64,000 bases of DNA from Lytechinus pictus (Eukaryota): positions 32,862,001 through 32,926,000 of the forward strand of contig NC_087245.1 in the NCBI RefSeq assembly GCF_037042905.1. The letters are read 5' to 3'. Positions within the stretch are counted from its first letter, which is position 1. Every line of letters begins with the position of its first letter. Below the pieces are notes generated by a model. That model did not search any database. It worked only from the letters and a program-made list of their open reading frames with translations, and was not told the DNA's origin. A program made the position numbers and the translations under genes. Below are positions 2,913 to 30,900 of this stretch, piece by piece.

Positions 2913-3155
2913 ACGATGTTTTGGTCAGGTGTGGCCGGTGCGAACATCCCACAGGACATCGCTCAGGTGACCACAGCCTTCACCGTCCTTGAGGAAACCT
3001 TCCCCGGCTACATGGCTGGTAACCTGTCCTGGTGTGGTGCTACGGATGGAGAAGAGTCTGGACCCGGTCTCAACTTCACCGTCTGCCCGACATGGCGGAA
3101 TGAGACGTGTCCGAACAACACCAAGGCGGCTTTCTGGGACAAGGCATCAAAGATG
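2913..3155 (+). CDS. CD38/BST1-like: ADP-ribosyl cyclase exon (TMFWSG...VLEETFPGYMAGNLSWCG...FWDKASKM)
   Basis: Acceptor ttcttag at 2912, donor gtgagt at 3156, 81 codons, family signature motifs. Confidence 0.95.
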
Positions 3156-4855
3156 GTGAGTTCCGAAGCAACGAAACAGTCACACCAACGAAAGCGACTC
3201 CAAAGACCGACCAATACGAATTATGCCTATGGCGGTAGCAATACAGATATCGGTCTGGGTTTTTTTTTTTACCTGTGTGGCCTTCCATAATGCTAGGGTC
3301 CCAACAGGTGGCGATCCATGGGGTAGGGGGTTCCACGTCAAAATGTGTACTCTATACCATGTCTTACGGGGTTCCACATTCATGACATTAAAATTCGTAC
3401 ACAATACCATGTGATAGGGGGGTTCGAACCACACCAAATCTGTACACAATATAATATGGTCGGTGGTTCCACCCCAAGGTTTGTACACAATACCATGCGG
3501 TAGGGGGTTTACCCAAATTTGTACACATTATCATGTAGTAGGGGGTTCCACACCAAGATTTATACTTAAACCATGTGGTAGGGGTTCCACACCAAAATTT
3601 GTACACAATACAGGAGGTTTACAAAATTTGTACACAATACCATGAGGTAAGGGATTCCATACCGAAATTGGTACACATTGCCATGTGGTAGGGGGTTCTA
3701 TCCCCAAATTTGTACACAATACCATGTGGTAGGGGGTTCCAAACCAAATTTGTACACAATACCATGTGGTAGGGGGATCCACACTAGAATTTGTACACAG
3801 TACCATGTGGTAGGGGGTTCCACATCACATTTGTAAACAATAACATGTGGTAGGGGGTTCCACACCAGAATTTGTACACAGTACCATGTGGTAGGGGGTT
3901 CCACATCACATGTGTAAACAATAACATGTGGTAGGGGGTTCCACACCAAATTTGTACACAATACCATGTGGTAGAGGGTTCCACACCAGAATTTGTGCAC
4001 AATACAATATGGTAGGGGGTTCCACACCAAATTTGTACACAATACCATGTGGTAGGGGGATCCACACCAGAATTTTTACACTGTACCATGTGGTAGGGGG
4101 TTCCACAATTTGCACACAATACCATATGGTAGGGGGCGCATCAAAGTTTGTACACCTTACCAGGGGGTAGGTCTGCCACTTGGTTCCTCCGGTGCAGCGG
4201 TACATTTCAAAGCTAGAATTAAAAAGAATCATGGGCAAACAAAATCACCTTCACACAACACTACACGTGCAAATATTTAATTTGAACAACTATCGAATGG
4301 AAACCTATTTTGTAACCATTTCTGATTCAACGTTTGCTCGAACAAATATCAGTTCGACCATTGAAGTTTATGGTTATGATATTTTGAACGTACGTGCTCT
4401 GTTGTTCCTGATTCACGGGAAATGATTTTGGTGTATTCAATTTTGGGCTGCGCCTGAATGGATTGTTGTTTTGGACTTTATCCGGTTTAGGGGCTTGGAG
4501 TCGGAACTGAACAGTCACAGCTTGTTACAATAATGATTAATAATGTAGGATAAAACACTGGCGGGTCTGGGAATTTTTTTAATGAGGGTTTGGGAAGTTG
4601 AAATGACGTAGACTAGAATGTGTTTGGGTGAAAGTAATGTGAAAAGGGGGATCCTCACCACCAAGGGGCGGACTCTGTCTGTCTATCCGGGAAAATATAT
4701 ACATATTCTTTAAACAAAAGAGCCCCACTCAAGGGGAGGGGGTGATTCGCACATTGAATCCCAATGCACTTCATTAAATAGACACTTTCCTCTACTGTGC
4801 ATACAAAATGAATTCGATCTTGTTTTTTTCTTTCTCTCTCTCTCCCTCCCTCACC

Positions 4856-11841: not shown

Positions 11842-12140
11842 TATTGCTCCAACCATGATGCATTCACTATCATGAGAAAGTATCCTTTATCCTAAATCAG
11901 TTTCATCCACAGACACGTCATTTCTTTCCAATATACGGTATTAAAAAAAAAACATACAAAAGCTCCAAAGTCAACTCACCAGTGGTGCTAGCGGGATTAC
12001 AACTAAAGATACTTCCATATAATGTAGAGAAGCACAAACGGGTTCTTCTGATCTCAAACTTGATAATTTTGATGTACAAAACTAAACAAATTAGGAAGAC
12101 ATTTATCTGATAAATCTGATGAGGACAGCCCATGCCCATG

Positions 12141-12266
12141 TCTTGTCGAGGCCCTGGCGGCTGCTTCCCGAGCGAAGCGAATTAGGCATGGCGCGGCGCT
12201 CTCCTTCGCTCTCTCCCTCGCTTCGCCATGTTCGCTCGGAAAGCAGCCGACAGGGCCTCGACAAGA
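12141..12266. repeat. GC-rich inverted repeat (hairpin MITE)
   Basis: TCTTGTCGAGGCCCTGGCGGCTGCTTCCCGAGCGAA pairs with TTCGCTCGGAAAGCAGCCGACAGGGCCTCGACAAGA; inner CATGGCG/CGCCATG also pair. Confidence 0.9.
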
Positions 12267-15200
12267 GGCTACAACACCGTCTGCCCAAAGTGCTCTATTA
12301 TATTTACACCCTAAAACTCCCAAACACAAAAGCCTATCCCAGGCTGAATGTAATAAGGCATGCATTTCAATTAGCGCTGGTATTAAATGGTTTTGAGACA
12401 TTTCTGGCCCTTCCTTCAGGGGTCAATCCTTTCTGTATATTGATATATGAATTTGTGCAAAGTTATTTTCTCTTGTTTGTATACGTGGACATAAAAAGGC
12501 TACAATGTACTCCTTTGTTTATTCTATAAGCTTTTGATAACTAATCAAAAATCTACATTATGTGTAATTCAATTACCTGATTATTTTAAAGAAATATCTC
12601 TCCATTGATATTATCGCGATGTAAATTAATAGATATAAAGTCTCTGTAACTAGTGTTTCTTCGTTCAATGTTTGTCTTTCCTCGTACACAGCATTATCTC
12701 AGATTTGTACTTTGTATTAAAATAATTTTATCCACAATTGTTTCGATGAGTTTTGAAATGTGGTAAACGATTTACGGTTCCATTTTTCTTTAAATGGGCG
12801 TGGGGAGGGGGGGGTACCATTTCCCCATCCCACCTCCTAGGGGCAAAAAGCAAATGTAATGAATGGAGAGAGAAACTGTGTAAGGAAATTTAAAATACTT
12901 TTAGAACGGCTTTTATGGTCGGGGAAAGAGGGATGCGGAATATGAAAGAAAGGGGTGAGAAAGAGGAAAGGAGAAAATGATAAAGTAGTGTGGCATGCAA
13001 GGTTAATGAAATAATTTAGTTCGAGGAAGATCACCAGACATTTTAAAAGTGATTTTAATCTGCTCTATCTCCTCTATCCTCACACTCCACCGGGTCCACC
13101 CCCTCTCTCTCCCTCCCTTTTCTACTCTCTCCCATTTCTCACTTTCTCTCTCTCACTCTCTCCCCCTCTCTACATCTCCTCTCCCCTCTCTCTCCCCCCC
13201 TCTCTCTCTCAGAACCATCTTCCGTTTTTTTTTATTACTCGCCTGTCTACATATTCGCATCTCGGACCAAAAAAATCAATTTAGAATCAAATACACGCTC
13301 AAAACCATATCGTTTGTCAATGCTTATTTAATTGCTGGAAAAATAAAGACTCACTAATACATGAATACAAGAAGACTATGTTTTTGTTCTCTTATTTTTT
13401 TTACTGTAAGCCCGCTTACGATATATAATAAGCGCCAACATAACCATTACTCATTGTACTTCATATTATTCCGAAACTCCATAGCCAAAATAACCCATTT
13501 GCAAGATAGAAATGTAACTTTTTTGTATAATATTGGAATTATGTTACAACAATTCAACATGCATAAACTGTCACAATATAGCATATGAAGATGCGAGGGT
13601 GTGTTCTCAAATTGTAAACGAATAAAGAAACTAAATCCCATTTGGACTCTTGATATTCGAATCAAATGACCCCCCCCCCCGAGCTCCTGCTCCCAACTCC
13701 TTCCACATCCATGCCCCTTCACTTTTTCAGTATGCCATAACAATTGCTCACTTATATGATACAAACATTTTGTTCGCAAACGTATAAATGAAAATCTCTT
13801 TACAATACTTCATTCATTTTTTGTTATATCTCTTCATGTCCATTAACCTCTTTCAGTGCCAACATCAATTTAGTTACAGTCAGAATACACTGAGCAATGA
13901 GACATATTCATCACATAAAATAAGATATCTTTGAGCATTCAAATAGTAATAGAAAAACAACATAGATTACGATTGCATAAACATGTACATATATATATAA
14001 CCTTTAAGTTGACGCGAGAGGACACAATATGATTTCATCTAATCAGCGGTCTACCATATTTCTAAAATTCCACGAATACCACTGAAATTAATATATTTTT
14101 TATATCATCATCTCAAAGTGTATATACTACAGTATACGTGTACATATAAAAAGGAGTAAAAGCTTTTATTAGTTTGAATTACTTTAAAATGATACTCCTG
14201 GGGACCAAGTAGTCTATTTGATCATTTAGATCGTGTTCAGTAATATATCTACCAAATGCTTGAATTAATCACATTCATAGATGAAAGTAGCATCGTACAA
14301 GTAAATATAACACAAAGGTTAAAGGCAGACATTATATTTTTTTGAAAATTTACAGTGTAATATTCAAATTCACTTTACAAATTACGATTTTCGGTATAAA
14401 TTCTAGGAAGAAATATACCAAAGGCTACTGATTTCTATATTAAAATCACATAGTTTTAAGAATTTAAAAAGCAATAAGTTAAAAACCTTAAATTGTGAAT
14501 AAGAAAACTACGATATCACTTTGTACAAATTTAATATTCGGCATTTATTAACCTAATGAATTACAACTGCTTTGAAGTGCATGATTCATTGAATTCAATT
14601 TATGATTCAATTTAGGTAGATTGCAGCACAGTTTTTTCAAAATATTGCAAATATATATTCACCATTGGTTCTAACCATCCAAATATCACTCAGGAAGATT
14701 AATTTTATATGTATCAAAATGTCGAGAAATCAGTTATCCATAGGATTAAAAATATCAATAAAATCAGAAAGACGTGGTATTTTTTTCAGTTACACATTTA
14801 CGATAAACAATTATTGAATAAAATATACAAATATATCATTGCGTTCATTACTAAAATTCATTTCGAAATTGCTTTGAAAATTTATTCAAGATTGCTTTGA
14901 AAGACTGATCAGAAGAAAGACGTAAAACGCACATATGCATAGGAATTCATTAACATTTCTTTCTGAGTTGATAGCTGGCTAAGCATAAATCATGAATACC
15001 ATTAGATTTGTGATTTTTGAATTATGCGAAATTACATTTTTAACGGAATTATCCGCAAAGGCAAAGCACACACCATAATCCAATATCATGTCAAATACTT
15101 ATCATTTTATTATGGAAGTAGACATACCCTCTCCGAATTCCGTTCGGTTCTGCAGTATTTTTATTTTTTAAAGGAGATGAATATATTTTCACACACACGC

Positions 15201-15853
15201 GTGCAAATGAATACAAAATGAATACTTTTACCGCGGAAGACTGTCAGAAATTTGTAAAATCTACAAGATTTTAAAATCACAAAACCCGTGATCCTACTTT
15301 TCAAGAATTTAATCTCTAAATCTGGAAGACGGCTATATGCATATATCACCCCCTCCATATATAAAAATCAAGAAATTCTATATAAAGATTATCACATGTT
15401 TTGTCATATTTACAGTTGTAATCTATGTTGGAGAATTCTCATCAAGTGATTGCTAAGATAGAATCGAACAATAAGCCTTCTCTTTGTTATTAAAGCTCCT
15501 CTTGAATTTGTATTATAGGCCAACCGCAGATTTCGGTGCAATTTCTATGACGCACATGCGCACAAGTGTTTTGACAAGATATACGCGTTACAAGAAGTAG
15601 TTTGGCAAATCTAAACTTGTTCACATCACCTGAAAACTGCATGCTACCCTCTGATTACGTCACCATGTAGGGCAACATAAGGTCTTAATCACACCAAATA
15701 TATCCAACTTATTGGCCTAGATTCTACCATCTTATTGTAAAATTAAATTAAACCAGTGGGAACTCTAGGTCGTATTCAAAGACCTTCTTGAAATCACCCG
15801 AACTTTAGTTGATTGTTACGTCATAAAATTGACGGCCTTTTCGCGTTCTTTTT

Positions 15854-15971
15854 TTAAAAACGCGTATCGTCCATATCGGCCTGAACGCCGAAACTTGAGG
15901 TACCGCTTGGGAGTTCGATTCCTTCTTCTGGGTTTGCTTCTGCGTCCTTGATTGTTTTAGACGCGGCACGG
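15854..15971 (-). CDS. SLC4A10-like: SLC4 alternative terminal exon ([38 protein letters not shown])
   Basis: atttacag acceptor; in frame with the phase-2 donor CG|GTACGA at 17164/17163; GC-rich island in AT-rich DNA; ends in a T-x-F PDZ motif. Confidence 0.8.
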
Positions 15972-18900
15972 CTGTAAATAAATATGATATCATAGGATGC
16001 AAACAAATGGTTAGTTTAATTTGCCTTATTTTGACCGAATACAGCCGCTACATCATGCGCAAAAAAAAACACCCTCTATTATACCCCAATTAGATTGCTT
16101 TTTGCCGTTGATTTCGATTTATAGGCGTACATAAAATATGATAAACTTCTTCTGGTAAATGAATTTATATTACAAGATATAAATACAGGAGGGTCTATCT
16201 ATGGTTAACTTATTGAAGCCAAAATTATAAATATTGCATTATAAGATATACAACAATAGAGAGATCTCCGAGACTCTATAGGCACTCGATTTCCCAGTCC
16301 ATGTACAATGCCGGAATGGAAATGCAAATAATTTTTCATCCAGAACTTGAATACTTTATGTCAGATACTACATTACCAAGCAAGATTCAAATATGGTATT
16401 CTATGTTAGAAAGTAAAACACATCATGCAAGTTCTCCTTTTTTTTTAAATGAAAGATCGGGGAGCGTTTCATGAAAAGATCTGTTAGTGGTTTTCACGGA
16501 CTTGTGCGCTCTCATCCAATCAGATACGAGGATTTGCGACCAAACTACCATGAAACCCTTCCCGGCTCGTGCACGTGACCGTAATCCATACAACGTTCAA
16601 ACAACATGCTGCAAAACTATCTCCGATTGACAGATAAGCAAGCGAAATAATTATACTTAAGGAATCATTTTCAAGGAAGCATGCAAATATTATAAAGAAC
16701 ATAAAATGTGACAAAAATGAAACATGTAAAGTGTAGTACAAGAAGATATGAACGCATCTATTTCAGTAATTCAGCTCGAAACATTATTAATCGCTTATTG
16801 ATTTTATCAAATTATGTGTTATTTCAGTTTCGACTCGATGGAATATTTGGTGCATTCTTTGAATTGTGCAAACATGTCACAAACAAAACACAAACAAACA
16901 TAAACCACGAATTAATAATCATGAACAATTAGTACGTCAGTAAATTCTGGGTTTCTAGCTTAAGACAGGTTTTGACCATGGTTGGATTTCACGAGGATTA
17001 AAATGGTGACACGAGGTTAGAGTTCATGCGGGTTAGAGTTGATATGATAAAATTTCCGGGTCGCGGTCATCTGTACATGCAGTGTCCTCATTCCATCATG
17101 CAAGGAAGATATTAGAACTTATCTTCCTGTGTTTCAATGTTAACTTCTTCAATTCTATCGTACCGGTTGCGGACAGTGGGGAGGGGCGATCCGCTGAGCT
17201 TGCTGAGCGCCTTGGCGTTCTCGATTTCAGAGTTCATTTCCGAGTCACGTGGGGTGTACGTCACCTTCTCAGCGGGCACGGTCAAGGTCTGACCGCTCTC
17301 CAGTGCGATGGTGAGTGTACCTGTGCGAGCACGGGTCACCTGTGATTTCAAATAAATACAATTGCACACGACACCAAAACGACAATGTTAGAAATGGATA
17401 TTAGTATTTCCACACAATAACAACAACACAACATGAAAGTTTTGCGTGTCAACGAGTCCGAAGATGACATCTCCAACACATAAAACAATGACGGTTGTGA
17501 CGAAACATCTATGACTATTGACTTGAATACAACAGGATTCACAATTTGGGGGGTACTTACTTTATGACATGCAAACTGTCGATATTCTTCAAGTGGCTTC
17601 TTAGAAAACCTTTAAAATGATTACAGAATTTCTGTTTTTTGTTGTGGGGGGGGGGGGGGGTGGTAACGATAGAGCAATTAGAACTGTGTTAATCATAATT
17701 ATGAAAGCAAAACACTATATACTGGATAAACATTACTTCTATGCATTGAACCTCCCAACAATTATTTATATTTCTTATTCGAAACAAAGTCAATGAAATA
17801 ACAACCAATTCAACAATATTAGAAGGGTCATGAATAAATGGAAAAGACACGAATATGCTCAGCGTAGATTCTTTTAAACTATCTATTTGAGTACGTATAA
17901 TTATTTTAAAGTAATTCTTGTCAAGTAACGGACATTGTCATTTTGGAAGAAAAGTAGAGCTAAAAGAACAGTATCGGGTGAGTGTAGTGGGACTCTAGAA
18001 ACAAAAGAAAATCGGGGTTCTTGTGAAGAGCGAGAGAAAGAAAATAAGGAGAAAAAAAACATAAGGGGGGGTCAAGAAAGAAGAAAATGGTCTACAGTAC
18101 GAGATCGAGTCACGTGACTAACCTGCTCGCGTTCCTCCTCCAAAATCTTTTCCTCGTCGTCCTTGGCGCGCTTTTGACTTTCAGGTATGACGTCATCCAG
18201 TACGTTCAACTCGTACTGAGTGAACACGAATTCCATGAGTTTACGGACGAAGACAACGGCCAACACCTAGGATAAGAGAACGGAACACATCTTTATTGTG
18301 GTCAAAATATAGGATACACACTTTTTTTGGACGGAACCATGAGAGACGGTAGGCCTACCTTTACTCAGAATGCTTCGTGAACCGCGTCTGCAAACATTAT
18401 ATAGGCCAAAGGACATGCGATGATTGGTTGCTTGGTTATTCCATGGGGCACCGTGCCCCCAAAATTGTCTGGTTACTGTTATGTAAAGTAAACTACCCAC
18501 TCAAGATATGTTTTTAACGTAAGTAGAATATCAATTCAATTTAACTTCTTATTGCCTACATACAATAAAGCGAACAATCTTCGCCACATTTCATTTAAAT
18601 TCTTTGCATAAATTTTCACTTTTTCAAAATTGTTGTGTTCTTTGTGAGAACCTCCAGAGAGCAATGGAGCATTCCATGAAACAAAGTGGTCAGTGGTAGT
18701 CACTGGCAGCTGTTGCAAGCTACCGAAATCCTTCCATCTGATTGGCTCAGAGCAAATTAGTCAGTGAAAATCATCGACTGTATGGTTCATGAAACACCCC
18801 GTCTGTCAAGCCTCCGCTAAAAAAAAAAGCTGCGTCAAATGGTTGACAACGATGTCGACGACGATAACAATGACGATGTTAACCTACCATGAGAGGGAAG

Positions 18901-21900
18901 ACGATTGATGCCTTTGATGTCTTGATGAGCCAGAGCAGAACAAGACACGTCAGCTGGACCAGGGTGAACAGATGAACCCTCCATAGCTTTACGTGGCGAA
19001 GGTAGACATAGTCGGGTTGATGTTTGGCCGGGATCAGGTACAACATGATACGGTTCACGAACTGAAAAGGATAATGTATATAAAAATGAATTAAGGCCAA
19101 AGAATCTAACGGTGCCTTGTAGGAAATTTTCGTTCAGATTTTCAAAATTTAGCATAAGTCCCAGCATACCTCCTTTAGTGAAACGGCAATTGCTTCATTT
19201 GCATTCGGTTGCAAACCAAACTTTCTTGAATGGCCCAACAAAAGTTTGCACTACATCTCATGCATCATCTTAAATCGTGTATACATTGCGTTCTAGTTAG
19301 GTCTTTTTCCCACATGAAAATCAGATTTTAGATAAAAAACTGATTATTATGATATAGGCCTACTCTTTCATTGAGCTGACAATTAAAAATTTGTCACTTT
19401 ATATTCTTTCGGTTTACGTAAAGTTTTCTCATATTGCATCTAAACTCTGACTCAGTCAGCCCATAGTCCTTCACCCATTGTCTATTTCCATGAAGAGGGA
19501 TATCCCCAGAGGGGGGAAATCCCGGAAAGAGGGGAAATCCCCAAAGAGAGAAATTAACAAACATACCTGAACTCCACGCAGTGATGAGATACCCATGTAC
19601 AAGAAAACACCAAAGAGAACGGGCATGGGGATGAACTGGGGGGGAAAAAAAAAACGAAGTTAGATTACGAATTTTAACAAATCTTAAATGGATTTAATCA
19701 CGTCGTAAGATCATTTCTACTGTATGTAGCATGTTTTCCGCACCGTCCGGATTTTTTTTAAGGCTTTGGTTAAAGATGTGAATATACTGAATTGTCTTTT
19801 TTGTCATTTGATTGAATAATACCTTGGCTTACACTCAAAGAAATGAACCTTTATTATGAGTAGTTTATTTTTGAATGGCTGTAAACATGAAATATAAACA
19901 CATGTGTAAAGGGGCATTGGACTCGGACTACATTGAACTTTCTGCCATAGACCTATGTAGGGCCTACATTTTTGATGAAATTGATGATATTACAGTCACA
20001 CATACCTTGAAAGTGTCTGATCGAATTATATATTTTTTCTTCTTCCTTGGTGGAATCCCCCCCCCAAAAAAAAAAAAAAAAATCAAAGTTAATTATTTTT
20101 TAATAACAACTTTGCAGTGTTAACCAACGTCTTTAGTGATATAAATAGATAAGGGTCCATACCTTAAGAACTGAAGTTAGCAGACTGGATACACCAATTA
20201 AAGCAAACACCAGGATACCAGTAACACGTTGCTCCCTACGGAATTAAACCAGAACAGTAAAATCTGTCATAATGGTGGCTATAAAAGTTTACCCTGATGA
20301 TAAGTTAGTTTTTATAAAAGCAGAAAAAATTAATATGATGAATATAAATATTGTTCTTATAGTAGTGGTGTGAACGGATGTTGTATGATATATCCACCGC
20401 ACAATCACTTTCAAATTTTTGTTAAAATGCCATTTTGGGGAACTTGTATCTAACGACATTTGGAAAAGCTTGAATATTCAAATCTCCGTTCTTCTTTGAC
20501 AGATGTTCACAGCGTGCATTAGGCCTATTGTTCCTTCTGGATTGTATTGTGCATCTTACAGAAATTTTCACTGCAAAAAACGTTAAAAAAACACTCTCAA
20601 AAGATTAACGCCTCACTCCAAAAAAAAATGGCCCGTCATTTCACTCCAAGAAAAGCGTAATGAGGAACCAGATGAGATCTTGTATTTAGGAAGGACAGTT
20701 CTTTATGAAACTGGCCCCAGATCATACCTGCAGCCTACGGCCTTGGGGGGCTCTCCGGGAATGGTGGTCTCCGAGATGACACGCAAGCTGTCGACGTGGT
20801 TGATAGAGAGAACGGTAGCGGCGACGAACCACGGCATACCGAGCACAGACATGACGAAGAGGAGAATGGCGATGACGAGGAGATCCAGATGGTAGCCGAA
20901 TCCTTTCTATAATGTCAAGAACGTCGATGAAAAACTTCAGATTTATTCATAAAAAATTATTACATTTTTATCTTTTGGTTAATTTGATGAGCAGTTCCAT
21001 AAAATAATCAACCTTTTTTGTACGTCCGACCTTTATTTCACGCCATTCTTACTTCACTTCATAAAGTTCTCGTGTCATTAAAGAGCATTATAACATTTCA
21101 TATAAACTAAAACAAAATTTGTAGGGGCCGGACGTTGCCCTGATAATATCTTGGGGTCTATTCGACATGATATTTTAATGCTGATTATGATTAAAATTCA
21201 TTTTATTTTTCATTTTCACTATTTCAAATTTGTAATATGTATAGAATAATTGTCGACTTTGTCATAAAAAAAAACAGTAATTAGCAGCAATTACCTTGAG
21301 TTTATTTTCGCGACGGTTGACGATGACGGCCGTGATCTGTTGGTCCATGAAGATGAGGATGGAGCAGAGAAGGGCTGGGACGATGGCGGCGAAGTAAGTC
21401 CACCAGGGGTTGTTGAAGAGTGGGATCACCCATCCACGGTCTGGGCGAGTAGGCTAAACAAGGATAAACAAAATAAATGAATACTTGTAATTAAAGTGTA
21501 AAGGCAATACGATACGTGTATGAAAGTCGTTGGATATCTACTGTAGTATTAATGCTGTTTCTCGACAAATTTTTGGCTCGTGTTTGTCAAAATGCTTATT
21601 TAATGAGCATGAACAAACATGCACGGACAACAAAGTATTTATTGAAGAGTAATAAGGCAGTGAAAATCATTGCATTTCATTAACAAAAGGAAGACGGAAT
21701 GGGTGATATTCAGACAACTGCAGTCTTTTTGCAATCCTCCTAAACGCCATCTACAAATAGAAACATTGGGAGTCGAACGAACATTGCATGTGTGACTCTT
21801 AAATAACCCTATAAAAGAAAGAAACTATTAATACATACCCTGAATGTGTCTGGTACGGTGAGCTTAGGAGTTGGGATGCCCACCCAGATATCGATTCCAG

Positions 21901-24900
21901 TCATGGCCAAGAAAGCCATGAACACACCGAAATCACTGATGATGTAACGGACCTGCGCATTATAAAGTGACAAGGTTAATCAAGATATTGCCATGTGGTA
22001 CTTGTTTGATGAAATTGATAAATACAGTGACATTACGAATGTTTACTTGAAAGGGTTGGCACAATACTTTGATTTACAACTATCTCTATCATATTGATTC
22101 AAACAACCTATGTTAGTATCAATCGCATATATTCTGTTGTTGATAAGCACATGTTATTAGTCGCCAGGGAAGGTTCTCTGTAAATAGCCAAAATAGTAAT
22201 TTGGTCTTTAGAAAGCATTCCCCTAGATATATGTATTATATATTTATGAACTGTTTACAAATAAGAGATCATAAATGAATGGAATTGTTGTTTTTGAGTT
22301 GAAAATGTAATATTTCAAAGACGTTTTTAGAGTGAGTGTTGTGTGTTTATATAGACTCAACAAAGACAGAACGGTTGCAGGCCGCAAGCGTGATTTTACT
22401 TACCTTGGTTGGGAAGAAGTTGCTATTGCGGAAGTTCTTGAGAGCATAGGAGAGGACAAAGGTGCCGAAGAAAAGCGCGCAGGAGAACAAGAAGACATCG
22501 GGGACAGGCTCGTGGTGGGTTTCACAGTCTCCGGTCAGGGTTCCGTTGATGGCTTTGCAGTCGTCTTCGGTCACCTCTGTCCAGTTATAGTGATTCGGGT
22601 CGATGGTCTCGTTCTGGTACTCGCACATGCATTCCGTTACGTTCATAGCGTGCTCGTCGAAGTACTCTCCGAGCTTCACGTTACTGAGGAATACAAAAAT
22701 GCAGAAGGTGAGAAGACGCCATTTTTGGTCATATACACGAAAGTAGAAAATGTTTGTCAACGATTAAAACACGAAAGAAGAGAGTGTTCATCAACAATTG
22801 AAAAGTATTGATTGAAAAGTAAAGAAATGTAACAATTGATATTGATTTGATAGATTTTTCTACTAATTGTTTTTTTTAATACTTTTATAACACCATCAAA
22901 GACATGATCGAATCTAGTGAATTTAATTAATGTTTCACCGTTTCATCAACCAATGAAGTGCGTCCTATGTTTTTAGTGTGCAACAATTAAATGTACTATG
23001 AAAGTTGCCATGATGGCAAAATTAGAATAGTCTATAGGACCCTTAAGTTAAAGAGCAGAGTTTTGTGTCTGCATGAGCACTCATCCAACAAAAGGCCCTG
23101 AGAAAATTGCTGTTTTAAAATGGTTGTTTTAATGAACTTCATTTTAAAAGAAGTTGACCGACTCACGTCTTGATCGGGTACTCGTGGCTGATCTCGAACA
23201 GGTTCTCAAAGGCTTCTACGATGAAGATAAACGAGATGAGAGACGAGAAAGCCTCTTCCGTGAACCTGGTGAAGTATCGAACCAAGGCACTGGCATCTGT
23301 AGCCACCAAGATGATGCAGATTACACACGTCCAAAATCCGATCCAAACACGGAACGAGATATAATCAATTCCAAACGAACTGCAAGGAGAATAAGATCAT
23401 GCATTCGTTAATTATAAAGTTTACCAATAATCATAGACAGCTATTTCGTAAGAGTTTTTGTCCATTTGCTGGGTGACGAGATAACCATCTACCGTTGGCG
23501 CTTGTATAAATTCGAAAAATCGAGGGGGCACGTCCGCCCCCCTCTCACCCAGGGATCATCAAGGTCAGTAATGCTTTGATAAATCTCAAGTAATTGCAGT
23601 AACAGCAAGGCTATAGTAAGTCATTTAGCGAGCTTATTGTTGGTGCCACATTAGTGTCATTATTGTTCCAAGGTTTCGATTTAGCGCCCCGAGCTCCAAA
23701 ACTTACTCAGAATATCAGTTGATATATAACCTAGTTGACTAGGTTCAAACACCACTCTTGACAATCATTCCAATCATCAAGTTGGACACTTTAAGCTGCC
23801 CACTTACCCACAAAGTTGGTACATGATGGTCTCAAAGATGAGGATAGGCCCCGTACTACCGATAATCGTTAGAGGTTGACCAGAGAAGAGATGGTACGCA
23901 ACTCCACAGATGGCAGCTCCAATCAAACTCTCAAAAGCAGCCTGTGATTGGTTTGAATGATAAAGTACATGATAATAGTGTTGGTGGTGGAGGTGGTGAT
24001 GGTGGTGATGTTGATGATAATGATGGTGATGATGACGACAATGATGGTGGTGGTGTTGATGACGATAATAATAATGATGATGATGGTGGTGGTGATAGTG
24101 ATGGTGATGATGACGACGATGGTGATGATGATGATGAAGATTACGATGATGATGATGATGATGATTATGATGACGATGTTAATGACGATGAAAACACCAT
24201 CAACACGATCAATGATGACAAAGATGATGATAAAAATCATGATGGTAATAATGTTAATGACCAAGTCGAACTTGCAAAAAGACATAAGAACCATATTGCA
24301 ATAGTTTAACCTAACATATTCACAATAATTAAAGAAGTCTTTAGGACTATAGGATGCCCAATATGTTTAAATTAATTTAAATTATAATGTATCAAACCTT
24401 ATATATTTTAACACGCACATCTTACTATTATTCTGCCGAGCCGAATGTCTCACATGTTATGTAGGACAACTTTCCATATGAAATGTCATACATTCCCTCT
24501 TAAAACGAAAACATCGATCCGTCTCGAGACTTCAGAAAGTTTGAGGTATACACCGGAAGTTCAGAGCACCTTGGACTTGCTGATATACTTACAATGTAGT
24601 CATCCGTGGCATCACCAAGCAAACCACCGAATGTGATGATGGGGGTGATACAGGCGATGTACATGAAAACAAAGGATGCCAGGCATTGGATGTTGAGGGC
24701 GTGGTAGTATTCGCTCCAATAGAACGGTGCTTTCTTCTTGATGTCTTGGATTAAACCACCGAATAATCTGAAATAATCAGAAATATCTACGATGTAATTC
24801 CTTGCATCACAAGATGTAGCGTTTCGCTGAGTTTAGAACACTATCAATTAGTGCAAAGAAAATTTTCAATGCCACTCGGGCCTATCATTCTGGAAACAAC

Positions 24901-27900
24901 CATTCCTTCTAAAGCCAACAATTGTTTTGTTCTCTCATGATTTCATTTTGTGACTCTGGCCTATCTTACGATCAGCTTTATGAAAACCGGTGGGTGTTTC
25001 ATAAAGCTATTCATAAAGTTACAAATGACTGGAATATGTTTTTAAAGGTACTAGGTTTGCTACACAGAAATATAACATTGAGCACAAGAATACGTGGGTG
25101 TTTCATAAAGCTGCTCGTAAGTTAAGAGCGACTTTAAAAACGACTGGTGAACCTTTCTTTTGGTAAATGGTGTACACCAGAATGTTCATTGGCGCTGGTT
25201 TAGCGCGCAAGAAAGGTTCACCAGTCGTTCATAAAGTCATTTGTAAATTACAAACAGTGTTATGACACACCCGGCTGTCCTCGGGGGAGTGTTTCATCAA
25301 AATTTTCATCCGACAAGTTGTCAGATCTGACAACTTTCTCTGATGTTGATTGGCTGAGAGGTACTGTTACTATGGTAACTGTCGGATAAAATGGGACTTG
25401 TCGGATAAAACGTGCGACAAGTCCTTTCATGAAACACTCCCCTGAACTCTACTTTATCTTTAATGGATCACTTATCCTATAACTAACCTTCCTGTTCTGG
25501 CAAGATCAAATTTGTCATCATCTTCTTCCTTGATTGCGTCACTGGGATGGATGAAGTGCTGAGATTGTCTCCTCATTTCAGATGATAGCGTCTGCTTGGG
25601 TGGTTCGATACGAATATTAGGATCCCAAGTACCTAATCAGAAAAAAATATATATTTATTAGTTTTTGTTTTCAGTTTCATTTAATCAGGTTGTCTCGTCA
25701 GATAGTATCAATATATAACTGTTGTTTGTTTTTCTTGAGTTTGTCTGGCTGTCTCATATATTATCATTATTACTATAATTATTATCACTATTATTTTTTT
25801 TATAATTATTATTAATTAATTAGTTAATTAATTAATTTGACTCACCTGGGGGTAGTACAGTGACCTGTTCTAAGAACTCATCAACACCGGCTAATAGATC
25901 TTCCCTGTCTCTTGCTTTGTAAGCTACTTCGTGGAAGACCTTAATAAAAAAATATAAACATTTTATATTCAATTAATAACATTTTGTTCGATCATTTCAT
26001 ATCTACTGCAGATAGCACCAGGTTTTACAATTCAACTCAAGAAATGAAATAGCCAATCAAGAACATTGTTGCATTTACACGTTGTTCATGGCACCAGTTA
26101 TTAGCCAATCAGATTCATCGTTTGAAAATCAGAATATATCGAGAATCTTTATGTTTTGGGGTATATAAAGTTATAGGTTTTTATAATTGCTTTACTTAGA
26201 AATAATGCACTCCCTACTCCCAGATTCTTATATTTTCTTATAATTCTTTTTTAATTCTCATTTTTTCTTCTTTAAATCTTAATTTCTTTATTAATCTCGT
26301 TCCATATTTACCTCTCCTGTGCATTCTTATTGTTTGATACCGTGAGTTTTTGCAAAGTCTGTAAAGTTGACTCTTTCCATTTTGGATTTAATTTAATGGT
26401 GGTTAATCCAAATTTTACAGCAAATAAGATAAAATAATGAATAAAATTAGTAATAATGATAGCAATAATTATTTTAATTATAATAATAGTAAAACATATA
26501 ATTTAAAGTGATAACGAAAAATAATATAAAAAACAACGTTTTGCCGCCCCATCCCGTGTAAGGTTTCCACACTTTTTTATTTAAATCTGAGACGAATTCA
26601 AACAAGCATGGTTTGCAGATTGTTAAGATTTTACCTCCAAAAGAATTATCTCAAATATAGCCGACAGAACTTCGTCAGTATTTTCTCTTTTAAACCGTAT
26701 TTGCATCAAGAGTGAAATTCATTTTAATGATAACTTACATCGTCTGTCATAAGGGTTGCCATGCAACGGCCGATTTCACGGTATTTCTTCTTATCCTTTG
26801 TAGGGGGTCCCAGCAGGAGGAAGACGAAGCGGGTCGGGATGGGCACCTCGGTGATCTCGGAGAGGATTTTGCCCTCGGAAAGGCGGATGAAGGCGACCAT
26901 GGGCTTCTCAACGAAGTCGACCTCGCCCACGAGTACATTGGAGGCCTCGGCACCGGCCGGGATCTTTCGAAGGAATTTCGCCTGGACGGAGAACAAAAGA
27001 AAATCAATAATGCTTCGGTCATATTTAGTTTACGATGACCCAGCAAACCCCCAATATCCATATCTTACATCTTCCTACACAGACACGAACTATAATAATA
27101 CGAATATCGTTCGATTTAACGGGCTTTCTTCATGCAGTAAAGACTCTATACGATTTTGTTCCGTGTTTCACAAGACATAACCGACAAGCCATCCCAATCA
27201 TGGATTTCAGCATTGATGAAAGAGGAGCAAGATTTCGAAATGTAAAATTCCGATTGATTTTCAATGGGAAAAATCTTCTCCTCGGTCGGTTTAACTTTCC
27301 CAATCATTTTAAAAGTACTGTATATCAACATTAACGCTATTGTTTTCATATTGAGAGGATAGCCCGCTTCGTATAATAAGAGCGAGTCGTCTCCTTTTTT
27401 TGTCACCCCCAAGACGCTATTTGCTTTCGGAATTGTGTGTAAATGAATTCGGATGTGTTTCAGTATTGCAGTAGGGAAATATGTTGTCTTTTGGCTAGAG
27501 TATGCAAGTAAAATTGATACAGTAATTAAAATAGTAGATACTGTATTACTGACAAAAAATATAGAAGAGGGGATAGGTTGGAGAAATTGATTTCGGAAAA
27601 AGCATTTCAATAAATTTCTCATTAATCTGATAAATATCAAAAGACAATGAAGCAACCAATATGGCTTACCTTCTCATTCTTAACTTCTTTCTCCTTCTGG
27701 TCTAGACTGTCCGATGTGCCGACCCTTCCGACAGACCCTCGGCTCTCTGTTCGGGCACCTTCGGGCATTTTCGTCAACGCATTTGCGCTCGAGTTTTTCC
27801 TCATCTCTCCTTCCTTCATTTGTGCTTCTACAAATAATACCAAAAACGATAAGTTAGTACCTCACCATTCACCATAATACTTACTGAATATGACTGACAA

Positions 27901-30900
27901 AAATGACCCAGAAATATCTCAATAACCTAAAAAGAAGTTACATTACAGCATTTTAAATCAATAAAACCTCGCACATATTTAAAGATATTGTGTTTCGAGT
28001 ACATGTAAGTTTGAACCAAATCACATTGTTTCATCTTGTTTTACTTATTTTTCGTATATATCCAATTGTACATCTTTTATTCAATTGAGACTTAAGAATA
28101 TTATCATTCACAGATTGTTTTTCTAATCACGATGACCGCTGCGGTAACAATGCGGTAATCGTGTCGCGGTAGCCACCACGCAACCGCTTCACGTACCTTG
28201 TTCCATGCTCACTGTGTTGTTTCCTGTGGACTGACTGCGGCCAATATCGGACATGCTGCGGTCCATACCGGGGAACATGCTGCTTTTCCTTCGTCCTTTA
28301 TTGTAGGCTTTGTTTTCAGGCTCCTTCTTCTTCTTCTGTTTGTGATGACGATGGCGGGTAAGGAGGGCCTCACGGGCGATGATTCGCTGGTCCTCCTCCA
28401 GCACGTTTGTGGCTACCAGATGGTCGAGTGCAAGATCTGAATAATCAAAGGGACAGCGAAAAGTGGTGATAGAGTCAAGCGGATATAAAATGTAGATTAA
28501 CACACATGAAGATGAAGGGAAACAAGGGAGGCCATTGAAAATGTGTTTTTATGTAAGATTTATCTGATTCCCAGTCTCCTTTTTGTCACCAGACCCTCGG
28601 ACCACTTATACTGCAATCTAAATAACCGCCCAGCCCCTTTTGAAAATTGTCTTCGCCCTAAAAACTAAGGCCTGGTACGGTCTCGTGAAGACGTGAATTA
28701 CTTTGCTTGACACCTGGAAACTCAATGTTCCCTAAATGGATCCATGCCCGTAGATAGGGCTATATGCCCATCATTTTTGGTCAAATTCTGAAACTATACG
28801 GAAGCTTTGGAAAACATCATGAATGGAAAAAAGGTCGGGTACGAAAAGTTAGACCAAGATCGATCTGCGCATGCTCGCTTCTACTTTCTTTGGGACTGGG
28901 CATTCGCAGGTGGATTTTTCATCTGAAATCACCGTCGTTTTTCCCTACCGAAGAATTTCGAAAAGCAACCAATAGTTATCAATTTGAAAAACTTACCAAT
29001 GATTTGTTCGAGATCCTCAGCCACCATGTTGAGTTGGACTCCACCATTTCTGATGAACTTCCGGAGTTCGAAGAGACTGTGAAGGGACAGGGTGGCAACG
29101 TGAGGTTTGCTCCATCTACCAGCGCCGTGGTCGACATTCTCTTCGTATTTCACCCATCTATCAGATCGTAAGAGAGAGAGAGAGAGATGGCGGGGAGGAA
29201 TAGGAGAGATACGAAGAGGTATCGGAAAGGGATGATGAAGGTAGAATTTTAGAGATTTCTTATAATATTTTGATATAAATAAATGTTACAAAACGTATAT
29301 TTGTGACTTCATCGAGTATGTGATTAACACAGTAAAAAATGCTCAAATTTAACAGTGTGTCCACGTAGTTGACTACATGATTATGATTCACACTATTAAA
29401 AGGCTCAGATTTAATAACATGATGCTGATTTCACACTGTTAGCAATGGGACCCTATTAACACACTGCGAACACACTGTGAACATATTGTGGGACACTGTC
29501 AACACACTATGAATACACTGTGGACACACCGTAGGGCCCTGTGAATACACTATAAAATATATGTACATATTGTGGAACACATTATGAACACACTGTGAAC
29601 ATACCGTGGCACCGTTTTTTTTTTTTTTTTTTTTTTTTACTGAGATTGTCGTAAGAGATCCTCACCTCGCCGTTTCTTTCCATTCCAGTAATCGACCCTC
29701 TTTGTCATAAAACAATTCCTCCATTTCCGAGTAGACTGGTGGTGTCTCTTTCTGATTTTCTCCTTCGCCACCCAACAAGAACTGTACACGCTGCTGTGGT
29801 GTCTCTCCAACCTCTGTCAATTTAGAAATGGCAACAGTCTTTGTGTATAACGGTTCTCATACCATAAGTCATGATATCAACTTTTATTAAGTCAGTAACA
29901 AACCAAACTTTTACACTTTGGAGGTTACAACAGCCACAGCTAAAATTGCGGTGATGATGTGTGTACTAAGAGGAACACAGCAGTCATTTTACAACGGTGT
30001 CAATATCTTGTTATTAGCTGAAAACCTATGGGTGGTATCACAACACCTTTCGTTCTTACTTTTACTCTTTTTGGTGTTTTCTTCAGTCTTAATGGTGTCA
30101 TTTTAACACCCCAAGGTTTGGTCTAGGGACTGGCGTATGTTTTAACACCCCGGTTTTACAGTGTGATATTGACTAAGTAAGAACACTGAATGGTGTACAT
30201 TCGAGACCTTTCATCAATTCAGGCTTTATGGATATCGATTAAGACGAAAGCAGAGTCTATATTATGTACAACCACCAGGCGAGCACTCCAGGAATCCCCG
30301 CACCCATTTTCAAATCAAACTGCTATATATATTTTTTTTTTCCATATATATATAAAAAAATCATGTAACAGGAAAACTATCTTCTTGATTGGCGAGAACC
30401 ATTTTTAGGGGGGCTTGTTATTTCTTTTCAGACGAAAGTGCCCCCCCCCCTCTCTCTTCAATCCTAGGTCCGCCCATATCCTGGTATTGTGTGAACCTAC
30501 CGTTCTCGAAGTTGAGTATTTGTGCAGCTGGGCTCATAGGCGAGCTGGGTCCATTGCTGACCGGGCTAGCATGCCCGTTCTGGTGGCCCTTCTTACGGTC
30601 CTTGTCAGCACCCCCAAACATTTCTTCTGATCGGTGGTCTGAAAAATACAGTAGAGAAAGAAAACGCGTGAAAGTTAAAGTTTGGCGATTAATCGTAGGC
30701 TTGATTTTTACGATTAATTGTACATTTTAATCAATGCAATCAATCGTTTAAAAAGATGTTGTACGATGATTGCTAAGCTTGGTGTTACGGTTCCGGCTTC
30801 CTGTTCCATTGATGGCCAGTCTTTATTTTTTTGAAACCTCAAATGATGTTAGATTCTCCCATGTGAACATACTATTGTGGGCTTTTAACATCAGGGATCC

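Follow-up and report, generated by a model that had tools for sequence, protein, structure and literature searches.

The principle that the C-terminal tails of SLC4 transporters are varied by splicing is already known from vertebrate SLC4A4, SLC4A8 and SLC4A10. In the available parts of the literature, exon 24 of NBCe1 distinguishes NBCe1-C from the alternative C-terminal ends of NBCe1-A/B, and NDCBE-A and NDCBE-B (SLC4A8) end in 66 versus 17 residues, the 17-residue tail inhibiting functional expression (PMC4664831, PMC4464172). Tissue-specific 3' splicing of insert B in NBCn2/SLC4A10 yields a long tail that carries a class I PDZ ligand, or short tails that lack it (PMC3567025, PMC4664831), and an optional C-terminal cassette III of NBCn1/SLC4A7 changes activity 4.4-fold (PMC4464172). 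PDZ ligands are grouped by consensus, class I having S/T at position -2 with a hydrophobic terminal residue and class III having D/E-X-hydrophobic; upstream positions also matter for recognition (PMC2891790, available text). Consensus matches are weak predictors.

The sea urchin transporter Slc4a10, required for larval skeleton formation, serves bicarbonate supply and pH control in the larval skeleton-building cells, and it is treated as one protein in ocean-acidification work. The Strongylocentrotus purpuratus ortholog, SpSlc4a10 (SPU_025515; PMC5831733, available text), has been reported in larval skeletogenic mesenchyme cells, and a knock-down phenotype has been described for it (PMC5986267, Hu et al. 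2018). In the available text of PMC5986267 the terms "pdz" and "c-terminal" occur 0 times, and neither a PDZ motif nor a C-terminal isoform is mentioned. We found no publication describing alternative C-termini of sea urchin Slc4a10 in a search that took in the available texts of PMC12189403, PMC5703972 and PMC5831733, most subscription papers lying outside the search. An Esrp-dependent intron retention given in supplement 3 of PMC5703972 (row 251; 2746 nt, 15-25% rising to 31-34%) was set aside: it belongs to another S. purpuratus gene, SPU_026017 (labelled SLC4A8), an identifier without a match in the main texts searched.

We analysed a window of 64,000 nucleotides of the Lytechinus pictus genome, which holds a Slc4a10-type gene with further 5' coding exons:

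15854..30621, minus strand: SLC4 Na+-coupled bicarbonate transporter gene, exon count starting at the ATG at 30621
47907-47791 and 45794-45642, minus strand: upstream (5') coding exons of the same gene, found by tblastn and corresponding to the long N-termini in L. variegatus and S. purpuratus

An exact exon walk gave 21 coding exons with GT-AG introns from 30621 to 15854, and the product equals RefSeq XP_063956718.1 (P0008, Lytechinus pictus) residue for residue. The protein combines a Band 3 cytoplasmic domain with a HCO3- transporter membrane domain (PF07565, 343 bits; PF00955, 803 bits; both over the curated cut-offs). Against solved structures it scores best with NBCn1 (1124 bits), followed by an NBCn2-type structure (1097), NBCe1 (991), AE2 (618), AE1 (573) and SLC4A11 (215). 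By these scores the transporter is nearer to the electroneutral Na+-coupled members than to the anion exchangers, a placement of which our protein tree, containing no exchanger outgroup, gives no test. Because the peptide used for the SpSlc4a10 antibody (available text of PMC5986267) is encoded letter for letter in the exon at 28436-28197, the L. pictus gene is, as judged by sequence, orthologous to SpSlc4a10, the protein reported from skeletogenic cells. The protein is 93% identical to S. purpuratus P0003, and the length of 1183 aa given in the available text of PMC5986267 equals that of P0022/P0028.

The two upstream exons form a separate 103-aa protein, P0011, in the L. pictus RefSeq set, probably through an annotation break, and at least four N-termini occur among the S. 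purpuratus records. The RefSeq sets of L. variegatus and S. purpuratus each contain two near-identical model sets (P0001/P0005, P0004/P0007, P0030/P0031; P0003/P0022), probably uncollapsed haplotypes. Elsewhere in the window lie an exon of a neighbouring ADP-ribosyl cyclase gene (2913-3287, plus strand; PF02267, E 4.5e-20) and a tandem repeat of about 20 copies of a 41-nt unit (3390-4171).

The 3' end of the gene is built from the following parts:

18123..18266, minus strand: exon 19, common to all forms, with a phase-0 donor and three possible acceptors
17561..17631, minus strand: exon A, 71 nt, an alternative penultimate exon that joins the DTRF exon (junction reads, RefSeq models)
17601..17609, minus strand: inner acceptor of exon A; a frame shift adds VF and a stop, giving the end EQVF (reads; P0014, P0006, P0009)
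17164..17339, minus strand: exon B, 176 nt, the exon described in the earlier note
17112..17163, minus strand: first part of the last intron read through as coding sequence, adding 16 residues up to EDKF and a stop (P0012, P0056, X1 contig)
15972..17163, minus strand: last intron, 1192 nt, kept whole in part of the exon-B RNA (X1 and X8 contigs)
15854..15971, minus strand: coding part of the last exon, 38 codons ending DTRF, used after A or B
15364..15853, minus strand: 3' UTR, covered at least to 15364, the edge of the stretch mapped; AATAAA at 15165, 15111, 14886 and beyond

The earlier note had proposed that the exon starting at 17339 either reads through to the TAA at 17112, ending EDKF, or splices from 17164/17163 in frame to 15971-15854, ending DTRF, and the sequence bears out both frames. 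A CAG acceptor precedes 17339, the read-through stop occupies 17114-17112, and the donor CCG/GTACGA at 17164/17163 joins acceptor 15971 in phase 2, with the stop of the DTRF exon at 15854. The DTRF exon is not hidden, as had been thought, but is the ordinary annotated last exon, DTRF being the end of 26 of the 30 sea urchin records, a redundant set from 5 species that includes isoforms, duplicate copies and older versions. The note also overlooked exon A (17631-17561) with its inner acceptor at 17609; the dominant form in three runs of the window's species uses A. Its two-way switch stands in so far as both RNAs exist, the B-to-last splice in contigs of organism B and the read-through in contigs of organism A; the choice itself is four-way. 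Counted from the ATG at 30621, the products have 1070 (A+DTRF), 1105 (B+DTRF), 1083 (B+EDKF) and 1010 (EQVF) residues, and all four forms are present among the automated RefSeq models.

In the mechanism that we propose, the donor of exon 19 picks exon A, the inner acceptor in A, or exon B. Both alternative exons have a phase-2 end, and either one by itself leads in frame into the last exon and to DTRF. Joining A to B brings a stop 24 residues on, and a transcript lacking both is out of frame. The double product, hitting that stop, would be removed by decay, which would leave the two exons mutually exclusive. The A-to-B joint (17561 to 17339) is not listed in the 4 runs, in three of which B is rare and in whose contig sets rare forms are dropped; a joint skipping both exons does not occur among the joints listed. 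A and B fit the pattern of mutually exclusive exons, in which single inclusion keeps the frame and double or no inclusion does not. No inverted repeat that could explain their exclusion stood out among 19 short pairs, and 12000-19500 gave no Rfam match. The acceptor region of exon A (17632-17660, minus strand) has an odd composition, with a run of about 16 C, then an A-rich stretch, then CAG. We consider the four-way splicing anatomy at this 3' end well supported, with little room for doubt.

With the 103-aa N-terminal fragment P0011 excluded, the ends of 34 echinoderm records divide into 26 DTRF, 3 EQVF, 1 EDKF, 1 DTHF (sea star), and 2 HEFV and 1 LTIL (sea cucumber). DTRF is kept in 5 sea urchin species, and the sea star Patiria has DTHF. 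The HEFV end of the sea cucumber orthologs P0033 and P0034 fits PDZ class III and not class I. The inner acceptor at 17609, with its EQVF end, is modelled in RefSeq for both Lytechinus species, and no EQVF-type model occurs among the 15 S. purpuratus records. The sole EDKF record among the 34 is P0012, an older L. pictus model found only in nr; no read-through model occurs among 15 S. purpuratus, 2 Diadema and 8 L. variegatus records.

The two alternating exons differ in depth of conservation. Exon B shares 54/59 residues with S. purpuratus and 55/59 with Diadema, is recognisable in sea star and sea cucumber, and aligns in its first half with a C-terminal stretch of human NBCn1; by these alignments it looks ancestral. 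RefSeq models of L. pictus, L. variegatus and S. purpuratus include exon A, which matches its S. purpuratus counterpart at 9/25 positions; the few records from Diadema, Patiria and Apostichopus do not show it. P0043, a tree shrew SLC4A8 record, has a low-complexity C-terminus directly after the part aligned with the first half of exon B and looks, from its sequence, like an intron read-through.

To follow the forms in RNA, we mapped 4 of 21 listed runs on 15364-18963, reading about 6% of each raw run. The raw runs X19 and X20 come from one rRNA-depleted study of organism A and represent total RNA, including nuclear RNA. X1 and X8 are contig sets, taken as RNA by guess, in which depth is a rough measure of expression and rare forms are dropped. 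We took organism A to be the window's species, as an X1 contig is free of differences over 15364-15971; X8 is from organism B, about 6% different in the last intron.

The raw runs contain more than one C-terminal end, with junction reads for both DTRF and EQVF, to which X1 adds a read-through contig. A constitutive upstream junction was crossed by 22 (X19) and 39 (X20) reads. From exon 19, reads led to exon A in 54 of 63 cases (24 in X19, 30 in X20), to the inner acceptor in 8 of 63 (4 in each run) and to exon B in 1 of 63 (0 and 1). All 61 of the listed reads into the last exon came from A (32 and 29). The junction 17164-15971, which the earlier note had named as the one to map, is present in the organism B contigs but has 0 reads in X19 and X20 and no X1 contig. 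In X20, exon B has a depth of 2.7 and the initial 120 bases of the intron a depth of 3.5, with 17130 covered by 4 reads that have 4 starts; X19 has no depth on exon B or on the read-through tail. The exon A form is dominant in X19, X20 and X1 and the B form in X8, species and sample type being confounded in this comparison. The first-listed RefSeq isoform uses exon B, and the common form in the three own-species runs uses A, so that a cloned reference may be the minor form. In the intron above exon 19, a short repeat at about 18710-18775 has more than 300-fold depth on both strands, many loose ends and strand-switch joints, which identify it as a high-copy palindromic repeat; a related piece lies at 16459-16481 in the last intron.

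The contigs carry the retained last intron. In X1 the upstream-to-B junction has a depth of 73 and no B-to-last junction is listed, while a single contig, 15942-17315, runs across the exon B donor and the whole last intron at depth 92.5; the three introns upstream have depths of 31, 11-21 and about 4. Most of the RNA with exon B in X1 seems to retain the last intron. X8 has depths of 135 for upstream-to-B, 119 for B-to-last and 43 for upstream-to-A, and a last-intron contig, 15943-17193, at depth 34.2, with 12, 6-9 and 0 in the other introns; this contig reaches 29-30 letters into each flanking exon, below the 31-letter bridging rule.

The same data bear on a rival reading, in which the choice among A, the inner acceptor and B stays as above but the retained intron marks nuclear, detained or slowly spliced RNA and retention throttles the B+DTRF protein. 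Intron depth declines steadily from 3' to 5', a pattern also expected of unfinished splicing, and the raw runs are total-RNA libraries. Mere delay, however, predicts some finished product, whereas in X1 the intron upstream of B has been removed and no B-to-last product is listed, though contigs drop rare forms. In a leave-one-out matrix the exon B donor is the weakest of the 21 (4.2; the next 4.6, the rest 6.3-12.9), and the stretch after it is purine-rich (0.67) and T-poor (0.23). This suits the rival, where the stretch would be a splicing-control element and any likeness at the peptide level a by-product. It would equally suit our own mechanism, in which the weak donor leads part of the B RNA to keep the whole last intron.

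The EDKF end could also come from an alternative last exon with its own intronic polyadenylation site. RNA ends are invisible in contigs and the raw intron depth is patchy, which leaves some room for such a site, but the last intron has no AATAAA and a single ATTAAA at 16020, a distance of 49 nt from the acceptor; in two organisms the whole intron is spanned by single contigs of even depth, and no pile of ends is listed inside it. We consider this origin very improbable. The simplest reading is retention of the whole intron after exon B with a common 3' end, the retained RNA then encoding a short acidic EDKF tail. Junction-dependent decay follows a 50-55 nt rule. The EQVF stop lies 40 nt before the last junction and no junction lies downstream of the EDKF stop; both forms would therefore escape it.

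Our initial reading of the EDKF tail was that of an unselected intron start, that is, leakage of a weak donor, and several observations agree with it. An open frame of at least 16 codons after a donor is not unusual (P ~0.39 from the intron stop frequency), for exons 1-19, 6 of the 19 donors are likewise followed by an open frame of at least 16 residues, and EDKF is missing from most RefSeq isoform sets. The composition of the tail argues the other way, as 6 of its 16 residues are acidic, equalled by 4 of 2767 other stop-terminated frames. We gave the initial reading less weight because of P0056, a 70-aa Logan record from the S. purpuratus side, present on 2 contigs, which was the one match when proteins of 41-132 aa were searched. 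In the part encoded by exon B it agrees with S. purpuratus at 57/58 residues and with L. pictus at 53/58; it then reads through the same exon B donor and ends in QEDRL. Of the final 10 residues 5 are identical, the last two pair as K/R and F/L, and the stops coincide in the alignment.

When anchored at the stop, the EDKF and P0056 tails reach a similarity score of 26; the best of 3877 null tails reaches 14. Since 0 of 3877 null tails reach this score, the two tails are, by alignment, homologous; the comparison concerns one record, known as protein only, and the match criteria were set after the data were seen. The earlier note had made its proposal depend on conservation of both tails, and both are conserved, DTRF in 5 urchin species with DTHF in sea star, and the read-through in its counterpart P0056. 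The window contains a 15-nt in-frame tandem duplication within the tail (17159-17130; 10/15 identical, equalled by 20 of 5232 in the null), and the 5-residue difference in length between the EDKF and P0056 tails fits it. Among the X1 differences listed, the only one inside the tail is at 17130 and is synonymous. No relative of P0056 occurred among 601 pattern matches in JGI metagenome contigs. A profile search of 50% representatives was discarded: it gave 9 matches, none of them SLC4 by inspection and all rich in repeated stretches. For the B and A forms, AlphaFold gave models of mean pLDDT 34 and 33, which were set aside.

Homology of the tails could be left over from neutral intron DNA, and drift can keep such a match at low divergence. 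With substitutions only, the probability of such a match is 0.44, 0.22, 0.05 and 0.008 at neutral distances d of 0.2, 0.3, 0.5 and 0.7; with indels at assumed ratios of 0.1-0.25 it is 0.05-0.15 at 0.2, 0.009-0.049 at 0.3 and at most 0.004 at 0.5 or more. We estimate d at about 0.3 from the intron difference of organism B (77/1218) multiplied by a protein-tree ratio of 4.8, assuming that organism B is a congener. A split of 50-80 My, given in the available part of PMC13317027, points to a larger d, and the literature searched, including the available parts of PMC8903837 and PMC4866015, gave no neutral divergence between the two lineages. Drift with indels, at P of 0.05 or less from d of 0.3 upwards, speaks against unselected leakage, as does exon A, a coding exon that is less conserved (9/25) at a similar distance; we regard leakage as unlikely.

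Constraint on the EDKF tail is likely from these comparisons, and it could act on the RNA instead of the peptide. Here the reading of the intron as detained RNA meets its coding-level evidence. Judged from the two peptides, no fewer than 6 of the final 30 coding bases must be different in P0056 at sites that alter the amino acid, which favours it, but the aligned stop, the in-frame duplication and the conservative last two residues fit constraint at the level of the protein. Detained RNA is a possibility that we take seriously and still consider the less probable one. For our part, we lean modestly towards a tail that is translated and selected, most likely kept as protein, for which the retained-intron RNA would have to be exported and translated.

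If so, the module may change the PDZ class of the transporter. DTRF meets the class I consensus, with T at -2 and F at 0, EDKF and QEDRL meet class III, and EQVF meets none. Among random tails, 5.4% fit class I, 14.9% class II and 2.5% class III. EDKF, which the earlier note had set against the PDZ ligand DTRF, is not simply PDZ-less. The control of apical/basolateral targeting suggested in the earlier note gets no support from the present data. The switch may run from class I to class III, and if the EDKF tail is translated, a change of partner is more likely than a loss, with docking on a different scaffold as the presumed outcome; the inner acceptor, truncating the tail to EQVF, would provide the form without a PDZ consensus. 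A four-way module with a retained-intron EDKF tail under selection and a swap between classes I and III is the explanation that we find best, and on balance we hold it to be slightly more probable than not. A more specific version would have regulated retention of the last intron acting as a class I to class III switch since the split of Lytechinus and Strongylocentrotus and, with the A/B choice, setting plasma membrane versus intracellular compartments, in both of which the transporter is seen in skeletogenic cells; such regulation, by stage or cell type, is conceivable, and we treat this version as speculative and rather doubtful. The SpSlc4a10 antibody cannot separate the four tails, because the exon that encodes its peptide is common to all forms.

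Compared with the described systems, the nearest likeness is SpSlc4a10 itself, whose RefSeq models contain exons A and B and the DTRF exon. NBCn2 resembles the urchin gene in that a small exon of insert B has shifted acceptors which alter the tail, much like the inner acceptor in exon A; in its available description, however, a stop-bearing cassette is included or skipped, whereas the urchin gene alternates two coding exons before a common last exon and retains an intron. Alternative ends that arise from a stop-bearing or frame-shifting cassette exon are not what we find here, EDKF coming from intron retention and EQVF from an inner acceptor. The 17-residue tail of NDCBE-B, as far as it is described, is close in length to the 16-residue EDKF tail. 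The NDCBE-B tail may be an intron read-through. The ends of NBCe1 and NDCBE are described as alternative exon splicing in the available text (PMC4664831, PMC4464172), in contrast to the intron retention behind EDKF. Of the precedents cited in the earlier note, SLC4A4 and SLC4A10 hold, but SLC4A7 does not: all full-length NBCn1 variants keep one extreme C-terminal end, hence no PDZ on/off switch (PMC4664831, available text). By analogy, the urchin module would work like the vertebrate SLC4 tail events, the likeness being one of function. If the EDKF tail is translated, splice tuning of SLC4 tails would extend beyond vertebrates and would be able to change the PDZ class.
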